Positions 4,070 through 61,118 of a DNA stretch of 64,000 nucleotides are shown piece by piece (the stretch's first letter is position 1; every line of letters begins with the position of its first letter). The translations under genes and the position numbers were made by a program. Origin of the DNA: Hadesarchaea archaeon (GTDB lineage: Archaea; Hadarchaeota; Hadarchaeia; Hadarchaeales; Hadarchaeaceae); the NCBI GenBank assembly GCA_030601675.1, contig JAUWBN010000005.1, forward strand, positions 848-64,847, written 5' to 3'. Under the pieces are notes generated by a model. That model was not told the DNA's origin, made no database searches, and saw only the letters and a list, made by a program, of their open reading frames with translations.

Positions 4070-5428
4070 ATGATGAGGAAAAGCCGGCCACAGTTAGAAA
4101 AAGGAATTAGCCCAGCGGTTGCGGTAGTGATTGTTATTTCTATTGTTGCAGCTGGCTTAGGAAGCTACTCTATACTCTCTGGTGGAAAAGAACCGGAACC
4201 TATAGCGGACTTGGGTCCAAAAACTAGCGATGTATTTGTGGAACCCTCCGTTTCCACTCTGGACACAAGTGGTGCTACCCCTAGCTCGGTTTCTGAGCTA
4301 GTGCAGGGAGCTAATGAATTTGCTTTTGATATATACTCGAAGCTAGCCGAAGAGGACAAGAACGTGTTTCTTTCCCCATACAGTATTCACACTTGTCTCT
4401 CCATGGTCTATGAGGGTGCCAGAGGAAACACGGCACAAGAAATGAGAAGAGTTCTAAACCTTACTGAAGAAAGCAGCATAAGAAGACCCGCCTTTGCGGA
4501 ATTCCAAAAACAGCTAAACACGAACAGAACAGTAGAACTAAAAACCGCAAATGCACTATGGCCTCAAGAAAATTACCCCTTCTACGAAGAATATCTTGAG
4601 ACCGTCAGAAAGTATTACCTTGCTAGGATAGAAGCGCTGGATTACGTGCATAATGCGAGCGGTGCTGTTGAGAGGATTAACGCATGGGCTGCAGAGCACA
4701 CGGAAAATAAGATAAAAAAGGTGTTAGATTACCTTAGTCCTCTAACGAGACTGGTTCTCACGAATGCGATATACTTCAAGGGAAATTGGTTAATACCCTT
4801 CGACGAGTCCAAGACAGAAAATGAGACATTCTACCTGCCCGATAGTTCTTCGATAGAAACACCAATGATGCAGTTCCACGAAAATAGACTGATAGAAAAT
4901 GGGTTCTACTACGCCGAAACCAGCAATATCAAAGCTCTGAAACTTCTTTATTCTGGAGAAAACGTGTCCATGATATTCTTACTTCCAAAGGATGAGTCAG
5001 GGAGTATCAGCTGGCTCCAAAACAACATCACTAACAGCAAATTTGAAGATATACAGGAAAAATTCGAAAAGAGAAAAATGAGCGAGATCAAAATCCCCAA
5101 GTTTGAATTCAAGACGGAGTATGAAAGTGAATTCAAGAGAGCATTACAAGACCTAGGCATGAACGCTGCTTTTGTTCCTGGAGAGGCTAACTTCTCAGGA
5201 ATGGATGGAACGAAAAATCTTTTCATATCAAAAACAGTGCACAAGGCTTATGTCAAGGTAGACGAGGAAGGGACTGAAGCGGCCGCTGTGACGGCAGTAG
5301 CCATGAAATTAACTGGGTTGCCTGGGCCAAAGCCGACCTTTGTTGCTGACCATCCATTTATGTTCATTATAAAAGATGAAAAAACGGGTGCCATTCTCTT
5401 TATAGGAAGCGTAAGCAATCCCAGTTAA
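4070..5428 (+). CDS. Serpin (serine protease inhibitor) with N-terminal membrane anchor
   Basis: TM segment 'AVAVVIVISIVAAGLG'. Serpin hinge 'EEGTEAAAVTAV'. C-terminal signature 'FVADHPFMFIIKD'. Confidence 0.9.
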   Translation: MMRKSRPQLEKGISPAVAVVIVISIVAAGLGSYSILSGGKEPEPIADLGPKTSDVFVEPSVSTLDTSGATPSSVSELVQGANEFAFDIYSKLAEEDKNVFLSPYSIHTCLSMVYEGARGNTAQEMRRVLNLTEESSIRRPAFAEFQKQLNTNRTVELKTANALWPQENYPFYEEYLETVRKYYLARIEALDYVHNASGAVERINAWAAEHTENKIKKVLDYLSPLTRLVLTNAIYFKGNWLIPFDESKTENETFYLPDSSSIETPMMQFHENRLIENGFYYAETSNIKALKLLYSGENVSMIFLLPKDESGSISWLQNNITNSKFEDIQEKFEKRKMSEIKIPKFEFKTEYESEFKRALQDLGMNAAFVPGEANFSGMDGTKNLFISKTVHKAYVKVDEEGTEAAAVTAVAMKLTGLPGPKPTFVADHPFMFIIKDEKTGAILFIGSVSNPS

Positions 5429-21350: not shown

Positions 21351-21446
21351 GGCCAGGGTAGTGTAGTGGTTAGCATTCGGGACTGTGGATCCCGCAGCCC
21401 GGGTTCGAAATTGGGGAAATCCTCAACGAAATTCCCGGCCCTGGCC
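21351..21446 (+). tRNA. tRNA-His (anticodon GTG) with encoded G-1 and a ~23-nt intervening sequence in the T-loop (about 21410-21432)
   Basis: G-1 plus acceptor GCCAGGG pairs with CCCTGGC+C at 21439-21446. Anticodon stem CGGGA/TCCCG with loop CTGTGGA. T-stem CCGGG (21399-21403) pairs with CCCGG (21434-21438) only if the intervening 'ATTGGGGAAATCCTCAACGAAAT' is removed. Confidence 0.7.
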
Positions 21447-24643: not shown

Positions 24644-24701
24644 TAACTTATAGTGAAACCTTAGTAGTTGCTCGACGTTCAAATCCAGCAGGAAATTAAA
24701 A

Positions 24702-24774
24702 TAGCCCCGCCCGGATTCGAACCGGGGTCTCGGGCTCCAAAGGCCCGAAGGATTGACCACTACCCCACGGGGCT
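24702..24774 (-). tRNA. tRNA-Gln (anticodon TTG), CCA not encoded
   Basis: Reverse complement AGCCCCGTGGGGTAGTGGTCAATCCTTCGGGCCTTTGGAGCCCGAGACCCCGGTTCGAATCCGGGCGGGGCTA, with anticodon loop CTTTGGA. Confidence 0.9.
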
Positions 24775-24862
24775 ACCGCTAGATTTTGTTGTTTTACCAA
24801 TTAAATAGCGTGGCATTTCCGGTGGAAGGGTTGCTCGGAAGTATTTATAAAGGTGAAAACAG

Positions 24863-24958
24863 CGGGCCCGGAGGGATTCGAACCCCCGACCGATCGGTTA
24901 AGAGCCGATTGCTTTTGGCTGTCCTTCAGGGACACCTACCAGACTGAGCCACGGGCCC
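24863..24958 (-). tRNA. tRNA-Lys (anticodon CTT) with a ~22-nt intervening sequence in the D-arm (about 24914-24935)
   Basis: Reverse complement GGGCCCGTGGCTCAGTCTGGTAG[GTGTCCCTGAAGGACAGCCAAA]AGCAATCGGCTCTTAACCGATCGGTCGGGGGTTCGAATCCCTCCGGGCCCG. The D-stem GCTC/GAGC forms only after removing the bracketed part. Confidence 0.7.
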
Positions 24959-25000
24959 GAACGAATATATCGCCCACCCAAATTAAGTGTTTACGATACT

Positions 25001-25777
25001 ATGCTCGTATTCATCGGGCTTGGCTTACATGGCGAGGGGATATCGCTCCGAGGGCTGCGCGAAGCTCGAGAAGCCGACGCTATCTATGCCGAGCTCTACA
25101 CAAGCATGCTGCCTAAACTTAGACTCAATGAGCTCGAACAAACGATCGGCAAGCCTATCAAGGTGGTTGACCGCGAGACCGTCGAGCAACGCCCCGATGA
25201 AATCCTACGGGCGGCAAAAGCGAGCAAGGTGGCTTTTTTGGTTCCCGGTGACCCGATGGTTGCGACCACGCACGTCGACCTTAGGCTGCGAGCCACTCGA
25301 GCTGGGATTGAGACGAAAATTGTGCACGCGGCATCAATCGCCTCTGCAGCTGCCGGGCTCACTGGCCTGCAGAGTTACAAGTTCGGGCGCTCGGCGACAG
25401 TACCGTTTCCAGACAACCCCTCACGGGTGCCCTACGAAACGCTGGTAGAAAACCGTGAGCGAGGACTTCACACCCTGCTGCTCCTCGACATCCGAGCCGA
25501 GGAGGGGCGAGCGATGCTAGCGAGCGAGGCAATCGAAATCATGCTTGAGCTTGAGAAAAAGTTGCAAAAAAATGTCTTCACCCCGGATACACTCGCGGTT
25601 GTCGTGGCGCGAGCTGGCTCGGATGATTCTATCGTCAAAGCCGATAAAGTGGGGGAGCTTCAGAAGTTGGATTTTGGGTCGCCGCCGCATGTGCTGATCG
25701 TGCCGGGTAAGCTTCATTTCGTCGAGGCGGAGGCTCTCCGCGCCTTTGCAGGGGCACCTGAGGATGTGATCAAATGA
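25001..25777 (+). CDS. dphB: Diphthine synthase
   Basis: 'MLVFIGLGLHGEGISLRGLREAREADAIYAELYTS', 'FLVPGDPMVATTH', 258 aa. Confidence 0.9.
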   Translation: MLVFIGLGLHGEGISLRGLREAREADAIYAELYTSMLPKLRLNELEQTIGKPIKVVDRETVEQRPDEILRAAKASKVAFLVPGDPMVATTHVDLRLRATRAGIETKIVHAASIASAAAGLTGLQSYKFGRSATVPFPDNPSRVPYETLVENRERGLHTLLLLDIRAEEGRAMLASEAIEIMLELEKKLQKNVFTPDTLAVVVARAGSDDSIVKADKVGELQKLDFGSPPHVLIVPGKLHFVEAEALRAFAGAPEDVIK

Positions 25778-26013: not shown

Positions 26014-26673
26014 TTATTTCTTAAACAGCTCCCGCACATCGTTCACCACGTCAGCGATTGCACACTCGAGGAGCTTCTCACCCAAAAATTTGTCGATGCG
26101 GATGCCCACCCTCCCAACTTCCCGAGCTTGCTGTTCCGCCCAAGCGTAACGTCTCCGCGCCTCCTTAAGGCCGACGAATCCTACCTCGGGGTAACGCTCG
26201 AAATCGGCGTGCTCGGCGATCTTTGAGGCATCGGCTATCCCTATCACGGCACCCATGCTCAGCTCGCCCGTCGCAGCGTGGGGGCCCTCTAGCTCGATGA
26301 GGGTGTTGTTAAAAACGATGCGTATGCCGAGCTCGCTCTCCAACGCGGGCAACCGCTCCCGCAGAGGTTCATTTCCCCCGTGACCATTGACCAACACCGC
26401 CGCACTGATGCCAAGTGCACGCTTCGCGTTGAGTAGAGCCCTCCGAAGCTCCCCCAAAACCTGCTCGATGCTCTGATGACGCCCCGTGTCTATGCCTGGG
26501 AGCTCATAGGAGAAGGTGAGAACCCCTATGAACTTCACCCTCGTGCGCTTCGCCGCCTCCGAAGCGACGTGTGAGGCCAGCCTTGCATCCGTGTCGGGGG
26601 GGAGGGCTGCTCCGTGTCGCTCCTCGTGCGAGCCCAACGCTAGGATGCCGACCTCGCTCAAATTCAAACTCAC
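26014..26673 (-). CDS. arfB: Creatininase-family amidohydrolase, probably 2-amino-5-formylamino-6-ribosylaminopyrimidinone 5'-phosphate deformylase
   Basis: 'LGSHEERHGAALP', 'LVNGHGGN'. Last gene of the rib operon, overlapping the ribH stop. Confidence 0.7.
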   Translation of the reverse strand: MSLNLSEVGILALGSHEERHGAALPPDTDARLASHVASEAAKRTRVKFIGVLTFSYELPGIDTGRHQSIEQVLGELRRALLNAKRALGISAAVLVNGHGGNEPLRERLPALESELGIRIVFNNTLIELEGPHAATGELSMGAVIGIADASKIAEHADFERYPEVGFVGLKEARRRYAWAEQQAREVGRVGIRIDKFLGEKLLECAIADVVNDVRELFKK

Positions 26674-27083
26674 ACCTTTTCCAAGCGCTTGACGGTCTTC
26701 ACTGCGGCCTCCACCGCGCGCCGGGCGTACTCGTTCACCCGATCCAGTGCCTGCACGCGACTCATGCCGGGCCCAGAGATGCCGAGCGCCACCGGTTTGC
26801 CGTGTTGAACTGCGAGGTCTATTAACTTTCGGCCCGCCTGCTGCATCACTAGCTCATCGTGCTCAGTCTCGCCCTCGATCACTGCTCCAAGCGTAACTAC
26901 CGCATCGATGTCACCACGTTCCACGAGCTTTTTCGCAGCTAGTGGCAGCTCATAAACACCGGGCACCAGAACCTCCGCTACTACCTCTGCCTCGAGAAAA
27001 CTCGCGTGTCGCTTTGCGAACTCAAGCATTGGCCCCACGATATCCCAATGCATTTCTGAAGCAGCGATCCCCAATCTAACCAT
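26670..27083 (-). CDS. ribH: 6,7-dimethyl-8-ribityllumazine synthase
   Basis: 'VPGVYELPLAAKKL', 'DAVVTLGAVIEGETEHDE'. The ATG at 27083 is preceded by GGAGGTG. The ORF-track start at 27167 is rejected. Confidence 0.9.
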   Translation of the reverse strand: MVRLGIAASEMHWDIVGPMLEFAKRHASFLEAEVVAEVLVPGVYELPLAAKKLVERGDIDAVVTLGAVIEGETEHDELVMQQAGRKLIDLAVQHGKPVALGISGPGMSRVQALDRVNEYARRAVEAAVKTVKRLEKV

Positions 27084-28368
27084 CCTTTTCACCTCCTTTT
27101 TCGATTTGCCAACGGAATCCATACAATCCATTGGGCAGTGTGTATCGTGAGAAAGAAATGCCCCCACTCGCTTCTAATCTACGTAAATGTTTCAACAAAG
27201 AGCGTGAATCTCTCCTAAGGATTTTGCTTAGTTCGACGGTTTTCTTTGATCCTTCTGCACGCAGAATGCGCATGATTTCATCCTCAACTTCTTCGCCCCA
27301 TATGCGGTTCTTATAGGAATTGATCGCAACTTCAAGTTTCTTTTGTTTTGTTGGACAGAGACCTATTTGATCAGCAAAAGCTCTCAAATTCCGTTTTCCA
27401 GTTATCCAAAATCCAACTATAACTTTTTTCTGGTCTCTCACCTGATATTTGCGAGATATTCGTACCTTTTTCGATTTTATCCCGAAATCCATCAGCATAC
27501 GTTGAACGGATTCGAGAAACTTTACTAGAGAATCTTTTTTGGAAGCTTCCTTACCCATAAAGATTTTTATGTTGCTGCTTTTGCTCCCGATGTACACTGA
27601 CCCTTCATCATTGAATAGAGCCCGTAAAAAGGATTTTTTTATTTCGGGACTGCCGTCTTTAATCCAACCTGGCATATCAAAATCCTTCTCGGTTTTATTA
27701 CCTCGAACAGCCCCAGCTACACATAAAATTTGACCTATTGTGGCTGGCAACGTTGTCAAATAAATGTCTCGTTCATTTTTTGTTACAAAAATTTGGACAG
27801 TAGAAATGACTTTAACCGCCACAAGAACTTCTTGAATGCACTCAACATTTTTATTTTTGTACTCTACTTGGAAGCGCCTTTCACCTATGCTCCCATCACC
27901 TAAAGCATGGGCAACTAGCGCGGCTAATTGTGGAGTCGAACGAATTGGAATTTTCACGGGTGCGCTCTGTGCCTTCAACACGTAGGCACAATTTTTTTCA
28001 GTTTCTTCCAAAGTTGTTCCGGTAATTGATGCGAGTGCTTTAAGAACAGTAACTGAGATAGACTTTATCTCGCCGTTTCTTAAATCCACCAAGTTCCCAT
28101 AACTACGCGTGATTTTTTCAGCTAGTTTTTTCCACGTTCCAATTTTGTATTTCCCACGCCAAAGTAATTTATCGAGGAAAGGTTTGTTTAAAACAACGCG
28201 GAATTCGCCGGGTAATTCCTTTAGACCTACTCTCACCCAATCCACCGATTCGACCTTTCTTCCCCTTTTTAAACCGCTTTGGAGGAGAGAGGTCGCCGAA
28301 AGTAATTTATAAACCTTATAAAGGGAGTCGTTGGTTGTGTCAACAGTGAAAATACGAGAATTTAACAA
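27076..28368 (-). CDS. Free-standing double-motif LAGLIDADG homing-endonuclease-like protein with N-terminal HTH-like and C-terminal winged-helix regions
   Basis: Motif 1 'LAALVAHALGDGSI' (aa 148-161). Motif 2 'FLRALFNDEGSV' (aa 247-258). C-terminal 'SKKTVELSKILRRDSRSLLKHLRRLEASGGIS'. AT-rich (22/60 G+C at line 27301). TTG start. Confidence 0.8.
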   Translation of the reverse strand: MLNSRIFTVDTTNDSLYKVYKLLSATSLLQSGLKRGRKVESVDWVRVGLKELPGEFRVVLNKPFLDKLLWRGKYKIGTWKKLAEKITRSYGNLVDLRNGEIKSISVTVLKALASITGTTLEETEKNCAYVLKAQSAPVKIPIRSTPQLAALVAHALGDGSIGERRFQVEYKNKNVECIQEVLVAVKVISTVQIFVTKNERDIYLTTLPATIGQILCVAGAVRGNKTEKDFDMPGWIKDGSPEIKKSFLRALFNDEGSVYIGSKSSNIKIFMGKEASKKDSLVKFLESVQRMLMDFGIKSKKVRISRKYQVRDQKKVIVGFWITGKRNLRAFADQIGLCPTKQKKLEVAINSYKNRIWGEEVEDEIMRILRAEGSKKTVELSKILRRDSRSLLKHLRRLEASGGISFSRYTLPNGLYGFRWQIEKGGEKDG

Positions 28369-28374: not shown

Positions 28375-29517
<1,143 letters not shown>

Positions 29518-36037: not shown

Positions 36038-37117
36038 TCAACGTCCGCACCATTCCACGACTTTTTCAAAAAGCTCGCTGCCATTGCAAGGCTCGAGCTT
36101 GAACTCGTTCCCCCGCTTTCCGTAACGCTTCGCCACGAGCTCCGGGTCTGCGTGCTCGGGCTCGAAGCGATTGAGCTCCTTTAATTCCAACGGCATCGAA
36201 ATTAGCCCCGTTTTGTAATGCATGCTGTAGGGTGCCCGTACATCGCCCATGGGCTTGATGATCGACGCGTCAAACAGGACCTTGTCGACGCGCTCCTCCT
36301 TCCTAGCCGTCTCGGCCGTCGTCAGCCCCGCCAAGCGTTCCGCCACGCGCGACTCGACGAAGCGCACGATGTCCGCGTAGAAGCTAAAGAGGTTGCGCTC
36401 CCTCCGTTCAGTCCTGAGTTGCTTCGGCCGATAATCTCGGGGGAGTTCGTGGGACTTGAACTGTGCCCACATCTGAAAGCCCCGTGAACCCGAGAATTTT
36501 ATCGCTGGTTCTATATCATAGCTGGAGAGTACCCCGTGCGCCACCTTAACGACCTGCTTTGTTTTTTCCATAGACACCTTTTTGCCGGCGTCGAAATCTA
36601 TGACGAGCCAGTCGGGGGAATCGCTGTTTGGGTGGTGGATGTAGGGGATGAAATCTATGCCGTGAACATCGAGCCACCGCTGCACATCCTTCGCGCTCTT
36701 GATCGTGATGTACTTGGGGCCGAGCTTGCGCTGCAGCCACGCGCGTGCGGTGAAGAGGCGGAAGACCGAAACCCAGCGGTCGCGGCAAAATTCGAGCAGC
36801 GCATCGACCACGTGGGGGTAGTACTGCTTCGCGCGGTAGACCTTGAGGTAATCTTGGTTCAGCTGCCCCCTGACCTCCCGCCACCGCTTGTCGAAGTGCT
36901 TGCGCCCGGCATCGGTAATCGTGTACTCACCGGCCTTGCTCTCGACCAAATCCTTTTTCTCGAGAGCACCTAGGAGCTCTCGCGTTCCCTCCTCTGAGAA
37001 CTTCTCACCCGCATCGCGGCTCAGCTTCTCCTGGATGTGCGGCACGTCCACGAACTTGCCGCGGCGCTTGATGGCGAGCGTCATGAATACGTGGTCTTGG
37101 GGTGTCGCTTTTGACAA
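36038..37117 (-). CDS. Winged-helix domain fused to an archaeo-eukaryotic primase (AEP) superfamily domain (PriS / LigD-Pol-like)
   Basis: AEP motif I 'WLVIDFDAG'. Motif II 'KFSGSRGFQMW' (Gln where His is usual). Motif III 'LFDASIIKPMGDVRAPYSMHYKTGLISMPL'. N-terminal wHTH 'LLGALEKKDLVESKAGEYTITDAG'. Confidence 0.75.
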   Translation of the reverse strand: MSKATPQDHVFMTLAIKRRGKFVDVPHIQEKLSRDAGEKFSEEGTRELLGALEKKDLVESKAGEYTITDAGRKHFDKRWREVRGQLNQDYLKVYRAKQYYPHVVDALLEFCRDRWVSVFRLFTARAWLQRKLGPKYITIKSAKDVQRWLDVHGIDFIPYIHHPNSDSPDWLVIDFDAGKKVSMEKTKQVVKVAHGVLSSYDIEPAIKFSGSRGFQMWAQFKSHELPRDYRPKQLRTERRERNLFSFYADIVRFVESRVAERLAGLTTAETARKEERVDKVLFDASIIKPMGDVRAPYSMHYKTGLISMPLELKELNRFEPEHADPELVAKRYGKRGNEFKLEPCNGSELFEKVVEWCGR

Positions 37118-37362: not shown

Positions 37363-38034
37363 ATGGATAAAATGCTCCCGATCCTGCGCCCCCCAAAGTT
37401 TGACCTCGACGAGTTGACTCGGCTTCAAAAGCGAGTGGCCAAGCGGGTGGTGCGCGAGGATCGTTTCAAAAAGCTCGAGCGAATCGCCGGGTGCGACATC
37501 TCATTCGCGCGAGGCGGGCTGGCCTACGCCGCGTGCGCGGTGCTCGATTACAAAAGTCTTGAGGTGCTCGAACGAAAAGCCGTCAGGGTCAGGATGAGGT
37601 TCCCATACATCCCGACCTTTCTGGCCTTTCGAGAGCTCGAGGGGATGCTGAAGGCCGTCAAAGGTATGGATGCGGATGTTTACATGGTGGGCGCCCAAGG
37701 GTTAGCCCACCCCCGCCGAGCCGGTCTGGCATGCCACCTTGGGGTAACGCTGAACAAGCCGACGTTGGGGGTAGCTAAGAACAGATTGTGCGGAAGCGCT
37801 GAAGAGCCGAAGCGGAAACGCGGCGCGTACTCGCTACTTAGAGATAATGGGGAAATCATAGGGGCCGTGCTTCGAACGCAGCCCTCCAGCAGGCCGATAT
37901 ACGTGAGCATCGGCCACAGACTTTCACTTAAAACGGCCGTTCGAATCGCGCTTGAAACGACACGGGGATTTCGTCTGCCGGGGCCTTTGCGCGCCGCCCA
38001 CGAGCTTGCCACGCGGGCGATGAAACCTCACTGA
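37363..38034 (+). CDS. nfi: Endonuclease V
   Basis: 'IAGCDISF', 'FPYIPTFLAFRE', 'GAQGLAHPRRAGLACHLGV', 'IYVSIGHR'. Confidence 0.9.
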   Translation: MDKMLPILRPPKFDLDELTRLQKRVAKRVVREDRFKKLERIAGCDISFARGGLAYAACAVLDYKSLEVLERKAVRVRMRFPYIPTFLAFRELEGMLKAVKGMDADVYMVGAQGLAHPRRAGLACHLGVTLNKPTLGVAKNRLCGSAEEPKRKRGAYSLLRDNGEIIGAVLRTQPSSRPIYVSIGHRLSLKTAVRIALETTRGFRLPGPLRAAHELATRAMKPH

Positions 38035-39845: not shown

Positions 39846-41429
39846 CTATCTGATTTCCGCGATGACTGTGGTGAAAACCGGTCCCCGGACGTCGATGCGT
39901 TTCTTGTTGTCCGTGATGTAGCGCTGTGCGGCCTTATCGAGGACGAGGTTGATATCGCTCAGTAACTTCACCGCCCGCACGCGGACTTTCACCTTTCGTC
40001 CGCTCCTTCGTGCCGCTCGCTCGATTTCGTGCGCCGCCAGGGCCGCGAACGCATCCATGTATCGGATGCCCGTCGAGATCCCCCACTCACGGACGGTGTT
40101 CAGGAACCTGTCCATCTCCCAGCCCTTGGGCGGCACGCCGATGAAGTTGCCATCGTATACGAAGATCGTGTTGAATCCAGCTGGCCCGATGAGTTTGGTG
40201 CCGCGCTCGGGCTCCACCACGCTGACGCTCACGCGCCTGCCCGACAGCCTGCCTTCGAATGCCTTGAACTCGCATGGGCTCGGCTCCTCCGCGTGCTGCT
40301 CGGCCACGCGCGCGATTGCAGCAGCGATCTCTCGCCCCGCCCCGCCCTCGGGCGTGCGCTTGAGCTTGATCATTTTAGCCAGTTGCGCGTCCGAGAACTC
40401 GGCTGGTTTATAGAGGTAAGGGTAGACGAGCGCGCGTATGTCCGCCTCACCCGTCTCAATCATCAGCACGCGCTCGAGCCCTATGCCGAGGTTGAAGACG
40501 GGGTAAGCGATATTGTAGTTGCTCAGCGCCACCGGGCTGTAGAAGCCTGCATCGCCCACCTCAAGGTACTCACCCGTGCGTGGATGCTTGACGAAAACCT
40601 CGAACTCGGTCTGAGGCGCGTAATATTTCGAGGTCGCCTTTTTGCGGGTAAGCTTCACATCCTCGAACCCTAGCTTGGCGAGCACCTCCCGCGTCAATCG
40701 CTCTCCATCCTCCACGCTTATCCGCTCCGCCATCACCACAATCGAGGCCGTCCAAGACTCGTAGAGGTGGCTCTCGTCCAAACGCTGTTCGCGCCTGAAC
40801 TTTGGGCCAATCGAGAAGAGCTGGAGGGGCAGGGGCTCGCGGCGTTGGAGCTCGCGGAGCACCCCAAACCAGCCCGCGGTCGTGTGTGACCGAAGCGTGA
40901 GGTCCATGGGCACTGGCTTCAGCTCCTTGAACTCGGAGAAGAGCGAGAGAATCCCCGTTGCCTGTTCTTCCTTCAGGCCAAGCTCGCGCATCATGACTTC
41001 TACCAAATCGTCTGCCACTATCTTGCCCTGCTTGTACCGCCTGAAAATCGCCTGGAGTTTCTTGATATTTTTGAACTTGGGCGCCAATTTTTTGATTTGC
41101 TGGATTTTTTTGTGGCTGATGCCTATGTCAGGGCGCTCCAACCCCGCTAGGAAAAAGATCCTATCCAAGATTACGGGCGCTTCCACCCCGTATTGGGAAT
41201 ATACCTCCTTCTTGTCCACGAGCATCGGTACAACGACCTCGGTGAACCCCAGCCTCAGCAGAACATGCCTCACCCTCTCGAACAGGTCAAAAAGTGGGTG
41301 GGGTTTGCTCTTGGGCCTGAGCGAGAAGAGTTCCCCTTTTTTCTCGATGAGTTTTGCGCCCTCCAGCCAGGCCCGCTCGTAATCCTTCTTCGCGCTCGCC
41401 CTCAGCTTCCGGATGTCGAGCTTCGTCAT
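39846..41429 (-). CDS. sepS: O-phosphoseryl-tRNA(Cys) synthetase (SepRS)
   Basis: 527 aa. 'LRSHTTAGWF', 'LPLQLFSIGPKFRREQ', 'KYYAPQTEFEVF', 'FYSPVALSNYNI..PVFNLGIGLERV', 'GIRYMD', 'IDVRGPVF' parallel Methanocaldococcus SepRS as remembered. Confidence 0.88.
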   Translation of the reverse strand: MTKLDIRKLRASAKKDYERAWLEGAKLIEKKGELFSLRPKSKPHPLFDLFERVRHVLLRLGFTEVVVPMLVDKKEVYSQYGVEAPVILDRIFFLAGLERPDIGISHKKIQQIKKLAPKFKNIKKLQAIFRRYKQGKIVADDLVEVMMRELGLKEEQATGILSLFSEFKELKPVPMDLTLRSHTTAGWFGVLRELQRREPLPLQLFSIGPKFRREQRLDESHLYESWTASIVVMAERISVEDGERLTREVLAKLGFEDVKLTRKKATSKYYAPQTEFEVFVKHPRTGEYLEVGDAGFYSPVALSNYNIAYPVFNLGIGLERVLMIETGEADIRALVYPYLYKPAEFSDAQLAKMIKLKRTPEGGAGREIAAAIARVAEQHAEEPSPCEFKAFEGRLSGRRVSVSVVEPERGTKLIGPAGFNTIFVYDGNFIGVPPKGWEMDRFLNTVREWGISTGIRYMDAFAALAAHEIERAARRSGRKVKVRVRAVKLLSDINLVLDKAAQRYITDNKKRIDVRGPVFTTVIAEIR

Positions 41430-42061
41430 TTGCCGCTCCCCCGCTCGGCCCGCTCAAGGGCACGCTCAAGCTTTCGCTGCCTGATGGCAATCGTGAGGTC
41501 ATCCCGCGTGCGCTCGAGCACTCGCCGGACCATATCCTGCCTCCGCTTCATCCCGGGCAAAATAGCATCCGGGTAGTCGAACTCCATAAGCAGCTCAAAG
41601 ATTTCCTCCATGAGCTTGAGCACCTGCTCCGCCCGCTCTACATCGTCTGCCCTTATCGAGTCAAGCGTGTGCCGTCGGAGCTCGCCCGCGGCATCGGCGA
41701 GGGCAGCGAGGTAGGGTTTGTAGGGGACGCTAAGCTCTTCAGGGGTCAAAAGTTTTCCATCCCGGATCAGCGCCTGAACTAGCTTGGCCTCACCGTATTC
41801 CTGGTAAGCCGCAAGGATAATGCCGGAATCCGCTAGGTGAGGCTCGGCCTTCACAGCCTCCGTGAGGGTTGCAAGTGCGTCGCGAGCCTTCGTTAAGAGC
41901 TCGTCGGCACTCGATCGGTCACCCCGATGAGTCGCGGCTATGGCCCGGGCTGAGGCCCTGATGACCTCTCGCGAGGCGTCGAGCACCCGCTCCCGGAGCT
42001 CCGCTTGGGCGTCGAAATGCTTGCGCATTTGTTCGAGCATTTCCTTCAAATTTATCCCCAT
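41426..42061 (-). CDS. Translin-family protein
   Basis: 211 aa, all-helical. 'YKPYLAALADAAGELRRHTLDSIRADD' matches the translin 'YL.GL.DL.GEL.R' core. Its stop overlaps the sepS start (ATGA). Confidence 0.7.
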   Translation of the reverse strand: MGINLKEMLEQMRKHFDAQAELRERVLDASREVIRASARAIAATHRGDRSSADELLTKARDALATLTEAVKAEPHLADSGIILAAYQEYGEAKLVQALIRDGKLLTPEELSVPYKPYLAALADAAGELRRHTLDSIRADDVERAEQVLKLMEEIFELLMEFDYPDAILPGMKRRQDMVRRVLERTRDDLTIAIRQRKLERALERAERGSGK

Positions 42062-42218
42062 CTATCTAAGGTAACCAACCTATTCAAGGCTTTGCAAAAC
42101 TGAAACGATTAACCCTCCAAATTGAACCTCTAATATCCCTTAGAGACGGCAAATTGCAACAAATTAAACGCCAAATGCAGAAAGCTAAGCGCCCGGGGTG
42201 AAGGGGTCGGACGCCACT

Positions 42219-43160
42219 CTATTTTTTCTTCTTTAACAAGACCACGCGGCTCGGCTCGGACTCGTCGACCAGCTCGTAGCCCGTCTCCCGCGCCAGCTCC
42301 CCGGCGAACTCCCTGATCTCGCCGTGCAGGGGCATGTTCTCCATAGCTAGCCTTTTGCGCGAGTACCCCACCCACATGTAACTTTTCACCTCTACAAAGT
42401 CTGGCGCGGCCTTCTCGATGAGCTCCGCGTATCCGGGTGCATCCTTGAGGTTGAGCCCTTTGACCAGCGTCAGACGGATCACCTTACGGCATGTGAACGA
42501 GGGCATAAGCTCGAGGCTCCGGTTCAACTGCCCCCAGCCGTCGGGGGCCGTTGGTTGGCAGACCGCCTCGTAGGTTTTAGAATCGGGGGCGACGACCGAG
42601 ATGTAGAGCTGTGTGGGCTCAGCGATGTGCTCCAAGACTTCTGGGTGCATACCATTTGTAACCAAAAAACTCGTCATCCCTCGCTTACCGCACTCCTCAA
42701 TTAATTCATTTATTTTGGGGTAGAGGGTCGGTTCGCCCGCGAGCGAGATCGCGCAGTGCTTCGGCTCCTGAGCCTCCTTGAACTTCTTTCCGTCGACCTC
42801 GGGGTTGCCGCCGAACCCGCTGAGCAGCTTTCTCTGCGCTGAAATTGCTCCGTCCAAAATATCTGCCGGCTCATCAACCTCGCCAGCCCAGCTCGCACTA
42901 GTCACGTCGATGTTCCGCCAGCAGTAAACGCAACGGTTGTCGCAGAAAGGCAAACTGGGTGTGAGCTGGAGGCAGCGATGACTTCGCATGCTTAGCTCCC
43001 GTCCATAGAACTGCTCTTTGTAGCAAACCCCACGGTTGAGGAGGCTCTTTCGCGTCCAGTGGCAGACCTTGACCGCGCTGTGTCTGCGTTCGCCGACGAA
43101 TCGGTAGCCCGCACGCTCTAGCTCCGATAGCTCGCGAGCAGAAATCGCCACCCTGATCAT
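42219..43160 (-). CDS. taw1: tRNA 4-demethylwyosine synthase Taw1 (radical SAM, TYW1 homologue)
   Basis: 'HSAVKVCHWTRKSL', 'CYKEQFYG', 'CDNRCVYCWR', 313 aa. Confidence 0.88.
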   Translation of the reverse strand: MIRVAISARELSELERAGYRFVGERRHSAVKVCHWTRKSLLNRGVCYKEQFYGRELSMRSHRCLQLTPSLPFCDNRCVYCWRNIDVTSASWAGEVDEPADILDGAISAQRKLLSGFGGNPEVDGKKFKEAQEPKHCAISLAGEPTLYPKINELIEECGKRGMTSFLVTNGMHPEVLEHIAEPTQLYISVVAPDSKTYEAVCQPTAPDGWGQLNRSLELMPSFTCRKVIRLTLVKGLNLKDAPGYAELIEKAAPDFVEVKSYMWVGYSRKRLAMENMPLHGEIREFAGELARETGYELVDESEPSRVVLLKKKK

Positions 43161-59861: not shown

Positions 59862-61118
59862 TCAAAATGTGCCTTGCTTTACGGTGCCGATTTCCTCGCC
59901 GTCCGGCTTTATCCGCATCGAGCCGAACTGCACGGCAGCGACCTCGCCCGCATTTTTGACGGGCGTGAGCACCGCCATCTGACCCCGCTCGTAGTCTATT
60001 CGCTCGATTATCCCTATACCCAGTAGCTCATTTGCATCGTTCGTCAATCCCACGATCACGTTTCGCTCGCTGCCCTGGGTTATAGTCCTCACGTGCCCGA
60101 ACCTCGCCTCGAGCTCCCGAATCGCATTCTCATCCATCTTCCTTTTCGTGACGACCAAGACCCCCTCGGGCATCTGCTCCGCGTGGAGGACCTGCGCCTG
60201 CGCCCCGAGCGTCCCAACATCGACGGGCCTGCCGGTGTGGAGGTAGCAGCGTTTGAGTCTTGCCTTCTGCAAGTCTAGGAGAAGCTTGCCAGCATCCTCA
60301 AAGTACTTCCCGAGGAACATCGCCCGCAGCGACGCGCGTTCTGCGGAGGAGCGGGATCTGACCTTTGCCGAAACCGGTAGCCGCCTTACCCTCGCCGGAG
60401 GAACGCTCGACAGCAAATGCTCGAGCTCCTCCTCGCGCTGGAGGGCAACCACGATATCTGGATCAACCGTCTCCAAGGTGTAAAGCTGAAGGGACCGCCC
60501 GGGGCCGCCGAAAATCCAGCCGGGGGTGTTCACGATCGCCATGTCCGCCTTCTTCAACCCGTGCTCGACCAACCACTTCACCCCCACGACGAACTCGAGC
60601 ATGTGCTCTGAGGGAGACATCGAGCCCACAAAGTAAGCGCTCGAGAGCGGGACCTCGTAAAGCAAGGCGACAGGTCGCTCGAAAATCCCCAACCCCATCG
60701 TCGTCGGGGGGCCGATATCAGATTGCCCCACGTCGCTGTCGATCGCCCCCGCCCGGAGCCCGTGCCTAAGCATGGTGTTTGCCAGGTAGGTTGTGAAGAA
60801 GCTCTTGCCGACATCGACGTTTCCCATCACCAGTATCACCTTGGGCCTTCGCTGGATGATCTCTGAAATGAGCGCGTCCCATTCGCGGGGGATAGTCCGC
60901 TCCGATAGCTGCTCGACCTTCCCGTCCTGCCCAAGCGTGTACGTGACGAGCGCGTCCTCCTCGACCTCAAGGGGCACCGACTTCGCGCGAGGGATGACGA
61001 CCTTGCTCCCCTTCCCATGCAGGCCACCGCTTATCAGCACCTCACCCCCTTTCACTTCGAGGCTGAGCTGCCCCTCGAGCATCGCCACATCGCCGTGTTT
61101 GAGTTTGAGCTCGGGCAA
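59862..61118 (-). CDS. Clp1/Grc3-type polynucleotide 5'-hydroxyl kinase
   Basis: P-loop 'VMGNVDVGKSFFTTYLAN', 'IDSDVGQSDIGPP', 'VNTPGW', 418 aa. Confidence 0.8.
   Translation of the reverse strand: MPELKLKHGDVAMLEGQLSLEVKGGEVLISGGLHGKGSKVVIPRAKSVPLEVEEDALVTYTLGQDGKVEQLSERTIPREWDALISEIIQRRPKVILVMGNVDVGKSFFTTYLANTMLRHGLRAGAIDSDVGQSDIGPPTTMGLGIFERPVALLYEVPLSSAYFVGSMSPSEHMLEFVVGVKWLVEHGLKKADMAIVNTPGWIFGGPGRSLQLYTLETVDPDIVVALQREEELEHLLSSVPPARVRRLPVSAKVRSRSSAERASLRAMFLGKYFEDAGKLLLDLQKARLKRCYLHTGRPVDVGTLGAQAQVLHAEQMPEGVLVVTKRKMDENAIRELEARFGHVRTITQGSERNVIVGLTNDANELLGIGIIERIDYERGQMAVLTPVKNAGEVAAVQFGSMRIKPDGEEIGTVKQGTF

Follow-up and report, generated by a model that had tools for sequence, protein, structure and literature searches.

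The DNA analysed here, called the window throughout, is a 64,000-nucleotide stretch of a contig from an uncultured sediment archaeon (Hadesarchaea). On the minus strand, next to the diphthine synthase gene, lies a complete tRNA-Lys(CUU) gene that is interrupted in the D-arm by a single short intron. The gene call is based on ARAGORN, run on the sequence spliced in silico, and on syntenic orthologues that adjoin dph5. The features of the locus are as follows:

24863-24958, minus strand: tRNA-Lys(CUU) gene, complete, 96 nt long with its single intron; the mature tRNA has 74 nt, and CCA is not encoded
24936-24958, minus strand: 5' exon, tRNA positions 1-22, comprising the 5' strand of the acceptor stem, the 5' strand of the D-stem, the D-loop and G22
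24914-24935, minus strand: intron of 22 nt, GUGUCCCUGAAGGACAGCCAAA, which separates position 22 from position 23 (G22/A23)
24863-24913, minus strand: 3' exon, tRNA positions 23-73, with the anticodon CUU at 24900-24902
24980-24987, minus strand: conserved A/T-rich element CTTAATTT, ~25 nt upstream of the mature 5' end
24856-24859, minus strand: oligo-T run (TTTT), 4 nt past the discriminator base
25001-25777, plus strand: diphthine synthase gene (dph5), adjoining tRNA-Lys

Read along the minus strand, 24863-24958 consists of GGGCCCGTGGCTCAGTCTGGTAG, then GTGTCCCTGAAGGACAGCCAAA, then AGCAATCGGCTCTTAACCGATCGGTCGGGGGTTCGAATCCCTCCGGGCCCG. Divided further into its structural segments, the gene is GGGCCCG TG GCTC AGTCTGGTA G up to the 5' splice site, GTGTCCCTGAAGGACAGCCAAA as the intron, and AGC A ATCGG CTCTTAA CCGAT CGGTC GGGGG TTCGAAT CCCTC CGGGCCC G as the 3' exon. 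The upstream element CTTAATTT, whose counterpart in the orthologues L042-L046 is conserved as cttaatttgg, is a putative archaeal TATA box. Since archaeal transcription terminates at T-runs, the TTTT run is a putative transcription terminator of tRNA-Lys.

Standard searches pass over this gene. ARAGORN called no tRNA on the unspliced 96-nt gene, and its scan across the window returned four tRNAs, the tRNA-Lys locus not being among them. Nor was the locus called by Rfam at the gathering threshold: at a relaxed threshold the tRNA model scored the unspliced locus (24863-24933) at 28.3 bits, against a gathering score of 29, while the four intact tRNAs of the window reached 52-62 bits. Once 24914-24935 had been removed, ARAGORN called a 74-nt tRNA-Lys(ctt) with every stem paired, and it is only after this excision that all four stems form together with a 7-nt anticodon loop. 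The ARAGORN call after splicing thus bears out the original prediction of a minus-strand tRNA-Lys(CTT) broken around positions 22/23 by a 22-nt insert, with exact coordinates and with the D-stem restored in the resulting 74-nt cloverleaf. The 5-bp hairpin that had been described within the insert, TGTCC-CTGAA-GGACA, is present as well.

Arbitrary removal of one or two segments yielded hundreds of formally valid cloverleaves and was uninformative; a scan constrained to BHB motifs was used instead. Across the window, 22,780 BHB-shaped candidates were spliced in silico and rescanned with ARAGORN, and exactly two extra genes were recovered, tRNA-Lys and tRNA-His(GTG), a count that leaves out spurious alternative calls on both interrupted loci and on the four intact tRNAs. 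This window-wide procedure confirms the claim that two of the six tRNA genes are interrupted. For tRNA-Lys, it singled out the intron at 24914-24935, with an inner helix of 5 bp.

In the geometry that was searched for, the strand running 5' to 3' passes through an outer helix h, a 4-bp central helix H, a 3-nt bulge cut after its second base and an inner helix h'; the return strand passes through h', H, a second 3-nt bulge cut after its second base, and h. The BHB scan found this motif in exact register around the 22/23 intron, with 3-4-3 spacing. Its parts are listed in the order of the transcript, with an arrow at each predicted cut:

24938-24941, minus strand: 5' strand of the central helix H, formed by D-loop U17a-G18-G19-U20 (UGGU), which pairs with GCCA
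24935-24937, minus strand: 5' bulge A21-G22↓G between H and h', with the 5' splice site after the second nucleotide
24920-24934, minus strand: inner helix h' and its loop, UGUCC-CUGAA-GGACA; 5 bp, loop CUGAA
24916-24919, minus strand: 3' strand of H, intron GCCA, found by the BHB scan, the alignment and RNAalifold
24913-24915, minus strand: three unpaired nucleotides on the 3' side, A-A↓A23; the 3' splice site follows the second of them

The central helix UGGU/GCCA therefore stands between AG↓G and AA↓A, which lie on opposite strands. In the strict hBHBh' form, h and h' are contiguous and have at least 2 bp each; here h' has 5 bp, and the contiguous outer helix at the 3' splice site amounts to 1 bp in the BHB scan (C17:G24). 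In the RNAalifold structure the outer helix is made of the D-stem pairs 10-12:23-25, reached across a 5-nt loop on the 5' strand. Because the outer helix is not contiguous, the motif is classed as the relaxed HBh' form, as defined in PMC5829648, and not as strict hBHBh'.

The presence of this motif in the insert is more than a matter of chance. Among 200,000 shuffles of the 22 nt, 27 gave an exact-register 4-bp H with an inner helix of at least 5 bp, and the motif recurs in 13 other genomes or metagenome contigs. The MFE fold of the single sequence differs from the BHB structure (−43.1 kcal/mol, versus −38.2 with the BHB enforced), which counts against the BHB reading; the MFE fold was rejected as a guide, however, because it is not conserved, being 86% paired, showing no compensatory change and breaking in the A10 variants. 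A self-splicing group I or group II intron was likewise ruled out, as the insert is only 22 nt long and the catalytic core of such introns takes up hundreds of nucleotides; Rfam gave no match to either type in the window even at E ≤ 5.

Comparative data were drawn from 18 further complete genes, which amount to 16 distinct sequences (L005 equals L006 in the D-arm region, and L045 equals L046 throughout). Eleven of the distinct copies adjoin dph5 in Hadarchaeota genomes. The other five are metagenomic; they came from metagenome contigs scanned with a pattern in which 0-30 nt could separate the two sides of the site. Of the 15 Hadarchaeota genome loci fetched, 14 have tRNA-Lys upstream of dph5 in divergent orientation; the exception, L004, has no tRNA-Lys beside dph5 (a synteny break), and the L001 contig stops 26 nt into the gene. 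An insert at exactly 22/23 is carried by 13 of the 16 other complete copies; the loci that have it are L002, L003, L005-L010, L013 and L042-L046, and the partial L001 also starts one, with GGTAG followed by GTG. The orthologous inserts range from 17 to 25 nt and all have the GCCAAA end.

In an alignment of nine distinct D-arm sequences, the BHB structure was 100% paired over 72 cells, the four H pairs being invariant, and each slid control was paired to 57% or less. H and h' were recovered independently by RNAalifold. Compensatory changes were found among the orthologues at three of the five h' pairs (UA/CG, CG/UA and CG/AU); the motif is thus conserved with compensatory changes. The exons vary in the same manner: pair 10:25 switches from G:C to A:U, and the anticodon stem occurs as ATCGG/CCGAT, CCCGG/CCGGG and CTCGG/CCGAG. 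Inserts were removed in silico from 16 copies, those of the window and of 15 relatives, and for 15 of them ARAGORN called a full-length tRNA-Lys(ctt) of 74-75 nt; L002, with a 25-nt D-arm insert outside the pattern used, came out incomplete. Judged by their conservation, with compensatory changes, in 16 other complete copies, the tRNA-Lys exons are under selection.

A more direct view of the junction comes from L015, whose Dph5 is 91% identical to that of the window and whose upstream sequence is the same. Its DNA holds the predicted spliced junction GGTAGAGCA (GGTAGAGCAATCGG) as a contiguous sequence. The uninterrupted 5' part of its gene is identical to the 5' exon of the window, and its mature tRNA, with its own anticodon-loop insert removed, is identical to the tRNA predicted here. 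At the level of DNA sequence, this relative is the closest approach to a direct check of the junction.

On the sequence evidence, we consider it highly probable (about 90%) that the locus is a functional Hadarchaeota (Hadesarchaea) tRNA-Lys(CUU) gene with a 22-nt archaeal BHB-type intron at position 22/23. What carries this reading is the gene itself, the exact-register motif, its conservation and covariation, and the occurrence of the predicted junction in the DNA of a relative.

It is very unlikely that the insert is instead retained in the mature tRNA, whose enlarged D-arm would then have a stem of 3 bp (10-12:23-25) and a 31-nt loop with a hairpin inside. The RNAalifold consensus does have pairs 10-12:23-25 around the insert, and such a tRNA is compatible with the RNA data: no contig of the three small metatranscriptomes made from the same samples falls on the tRNA-Lys locus, and these data are uninformative on expression. 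However, retention would leave the universally conserved G18-G19 locked in UGGU/GCCA and C13 unpaired. Moreover, the 3-4-3 BHB spacing and the invariant GCCAAA end are requirements of an EndA substrate, not needed for a structural expansion, and L015, L011, L012 and L014 all manage without the insert.

We find it hardly credible that the gene is a pseudogene, inactivated by the 22-nt insertion and replaced by a working copy elsewhere in the genome. Such a history would agree with the failure of standard tools to call the gene, and the search for a second tRNA-Lys(CUU) covered the 64-kb window. Yet relatives down to ~77% Dph5 identity keep the interrupted gene beside dph5, with intact exons, covarying stems and a conserved splice motif, a combination that does not fit the definition of a pseudogene. 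The metagenome scan, with a gap of 0 permitted, found no intronless allele with the exons of the window, and neither ARAGORN nor the splice-and-rescan procedure found a second tRNA-Lys in the 64-kb window. A chimeric join inside the tRNA gene, arising from assembly or binning of the metagenome-assembled genome from which the window derives, has a negligible probability, since 14 other contigs, from different studies and samples, show the same structure in independent assemblies and a Logan contig of run X1 covers 24745-25281 without a gap. The compensatory changes in the exons, together with the tRNA-Lys calls obtained across gene copies once the inserts had been removed, rule out, in our view, both the pseudogene and the artefact.

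For a functional, spliced tRNA-Lys(CUU), we infer the promoter, the terminator, cleavage, ligation and the enzymes involved along the following lines. Transcription would start from the CTTAATTT element and end at the TTTT run. The precursor would fold into the HBh' structure, in which intron GCCA pairs with U17a-G18-G19-U20 to give the 4-bp central helix and the intron's own 5-bp hairpin provides the inner helix, so that each splice site would be exposed within three unpaired nucleotides, AG↓G on one strand and AA↓A on the other. EndA would cut both sites, and an RtcB-type ligase would join G22 to A23. Ligation would create the fourth D-stem pair, C13:G22, and free G18-G19 for the tertiary contact between D-loop and T-loop; CCA would be added last.

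For a long time the alpha4 type of EndA was believed to cleave strict BHB motifs and no others. For Hadesarchaea, Kaneta et al. (2018, PMC5829648) report raised tRNA disruption and an alpha4 EndA with an L3 loop. The proposal that these introns mark a lineage with a splicing endonuclease of relaxed specificity is plausible on our analysis, favoured by the relaxed HBh' 3' site of tRNA-Lys and by what that paper reports. The enzyme described there is neither of the forms that the original prediction had offered as examples, a heterotetramer or an epsilon2 enzyme. In the 64-kb window, no EndA was found by tblastn with a M. jannaschii EndA probe, validated against PDB 1A79; Pfam scans, which covered 67 of the 71 ORFs of the window, found neither EndA nor RtcB, and neither was found in the fetched loci.

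Positions 22/23, 30/31, 59/60 and 20/21 are all published non-canonical positions of archaeal tRNA introns, as are 25/26, 29/30, 45/46, 53/54 and 56/57 (Yoshihisa 2014, PMC4090602). Non-canonical BHB introns are known from the tRNA genes of Crenarchaeota/Thermoproteales and Nanoarchaeota (PMC4090602). Because position 22/23 is published and raised tRNA disruption is reported for Hadesarchaea, the intron is to be expected in this lineage; its type is already known, and the tRNA-Lys case is well supported. The window intron shares with those of Crenarchaeota/Thermoproteales and Nanoarchaeota the 22/23 position, the short length and a 4-bp helix between 3-nt unpaired stretches in a relaxed HBh' motif, and the extra sites that we found in Hadarchaeota (30/31, 59/60 and ~20/21) are among the listed positions. 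It differs in its host, Hadarchaeota of the kingdom Methanobacteriati and not TACK or DPANN, and in an endonuclease that is alpha4 with L3 according to the literature, not (alpha-beta)2 or epsilon2. A further comparison is with the disrupted tRNA genes of Hadesarchaea archaeon YNP_N21 (PMC5829648), which belongs to the same class of organisms. The available text of that paper gives proportions per genome and not the tRNA-Lys gene or its position; the genome of the window, by contrast, is of a different, marine-sediment lineage.

The tRNA-Lys orthologues also differ from one another in their introns. At 30/31, where the gene of the window is uninterrupted, a BHB intron of 18 nt interrupts L002 and L014, with an outer helix h of 2 and 4 bp, respectively. 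An anticodon-loop insert of 14-22 nt lies at or next to 37/38 in eight copies (L003, L005, L006, L008, L011, L012, L013 and L015), as delimited by the expected mature loop; the 3' bulge of L008 appears to be 4 nt. There are five configurations of this one gene: 22/23; 22/23 with 37/38; 22/23 with 30/31; 37/38; and 30/31. On an NJ tree of Dph5, the copies with the 22/23 intron fall into one clade, inside which L015 lacks it; the three deepest branches (L011, L012 and L014) lack it too. Such a distribution would fit a single gain and one precise loss or more, the NJ tree of a single protein being weak evidence.

The other interrupted gene of the window and the tRNA-Gln gene extend the comparison:

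21351-21446, plus strand: tRNA-His(GTG) with encoded G-1 and a 23-nt T-loop intron (21410-21432) at position 59/60
24701-24775: tRNA-Gln(UUG), uninterrupted

Like tRNA-Lys, tRNA-His was missed by ARAGORN and, at 26.9 bits, by Rfam at the gathering threshold. Its intron has a strict hBHBh' motif (H = UUCG/CGAA; h' = UUGGGG/CCUCAA, 6 bp; h = T-stem) and for that reason needs no relaxed enzyme. Two relatives of the window have an intron of 29-30 nt in the D-loop of tRNA-Gln(UUG), at ~20/21 (L009, 3695-3800, minus strand; L014, 58-162, minus strand), with H = GUGG/CCAC, again built on G18-G19. Two different D-arm introns, that of tRNA-Lys at 22/23 and that of tRNA-Gln at ~20/21, thus build the central helix on the conserved G18-G19. 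If this holds true, splicing may be an obligatory checkpoint before the tRNA elbow folds, or G18-G19 may be a preferred target of insertion.

Two known systems bear on this turnover. A split tRNA-Lys(CUU) with its break at 30/31 occurs in Nanoarchaeum equitans and Staphylothermus (as cited in PMC4090602); it is the same isoacceptor, and L002 and L014 are interrupted exactly there. In Hadarchaeota, however, the halves are contiguous around a cis intron, and the gene of the window is without the 30/31 break. In Thermoproteales, tRNA introns are described as being gained, lost and transposed (Fujishima et al. 2010, as cited in PMC4090602). The Hadarchaeota case is similar in that one orthologous gene has differing intron combinations among close relatives. 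It is different in that the tRNA-Lys and tRNA-His introns of the window showed no sequence similarity, so that there is no sign of one transposing family. A wider idea, which we put forward tentatively and regard as rather doubtful, is that tRNA introns come and go rapidly in Hadarchaeota as well: the lineage would be a second hot spot, beyond Thermoproteales and DPANN, and its alpha4-type endonuclease would tolerate relaxed motifs.

The main value of the analysis is a corrected annotation of a gene that ARAGORN and Rfam both miss, as they miss tRNA-His. On the unspliced tRNA-Lys orthologues ARAGORN gave wrong or undetermined calls of 91-99 nt each, namely tRNA-Ala(ggc), Val(gac), Cys(gca) and tRNA-??? 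(L007, 3751-3849; L043, 1241-1339; L042, 29-127; L014, 3861-3956; and L009, L011 and L012). These miscalls are a likely source of misannotation in Hadarchaeota MAGs. Annotations of such MAGs may lack or mislabel Lys(CUU) and His, which would affect inferences of completeness and codon usage. The biological value lies in a well-resolved comparison that shows where introns are present or absent at three sites of a single gene, in an archaeal group reported to have the alpha4-type enzyme; the relaxed 22/23 substrate would lend itself to tests of an endonuclease of this type.

The window is ordinary core chromosome. The best relatives of its Dph5 are 72-99% identical and come from Hadesarchaea/Hadarchaeota MAGs, and DNA near-identical to the window was found in marine-sediment and subsurface metagenomes. 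A look-up of the exact Dph5 protein returned no record. Its larger gene groups are:

6-18.5 kb: ribosomal-protein/SecY/Cbf5 cluster
26-30 kb: riboflavin genes
Beyond the riboflavin genes: exosome, proteasome and aminoacyl-tRNA synthetase genes

One metagenomic contig, contig 2 of run X1 (550 nt; 24745-25281), is identical to the window from the spacer between tRNA-Gln and tRNA-Lys through the whole interrupted tRNA-Lys gene, and then differs from it at 39 positions in the first 280 nt of dph5. This mosaic reflects either strain recombination or a chimeric contig.

Inside the riboflavin gene cluster, a 430-aa ORF with LAGLIDADG_3 and Cro/C1 HTH domains (27076-28368, minus strand) looks like a free-standing homing-endonuclease-like gene. 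It is flanked by the lumazine synthase gene (26670-27167), whose start it overlaps by 92 nt, and by an archaeal riboflavin synthase-like gene (28375-28851). Several tRNA-related genes cluster around 39846-43160, including an O-phosphoseryl-tRNA synthetase-like gene with a class II core and SepRS_C (39846-41429, minus strand) and a Taw1/TYW1-type wyosine radical-SAM gene (42219-43160, minus strand). A Clp1-type P-loop protein is encoded at 59862-61118 on the minus strand (PF16575, E = 7e-39). In archaea, homologues of Clp1 act as RNA 5'-OH kinases, and in eukaryotes Clp1 is a partner of the tRNA splicing endonuclease; a link between this protein and the tRNA introns of the window would be speculative. 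The archaeal genome also encodes a full-length serpin (4070-5428, plus strand; PF00079, E = 2e-113). Finally, an ORF with a LigD primase-polymerase domain (36038-37117, minus strand) lies beside endonuclease V (37363-38034), and G+C falls to its minimum for the window, 0.50, at 36-40 kb.
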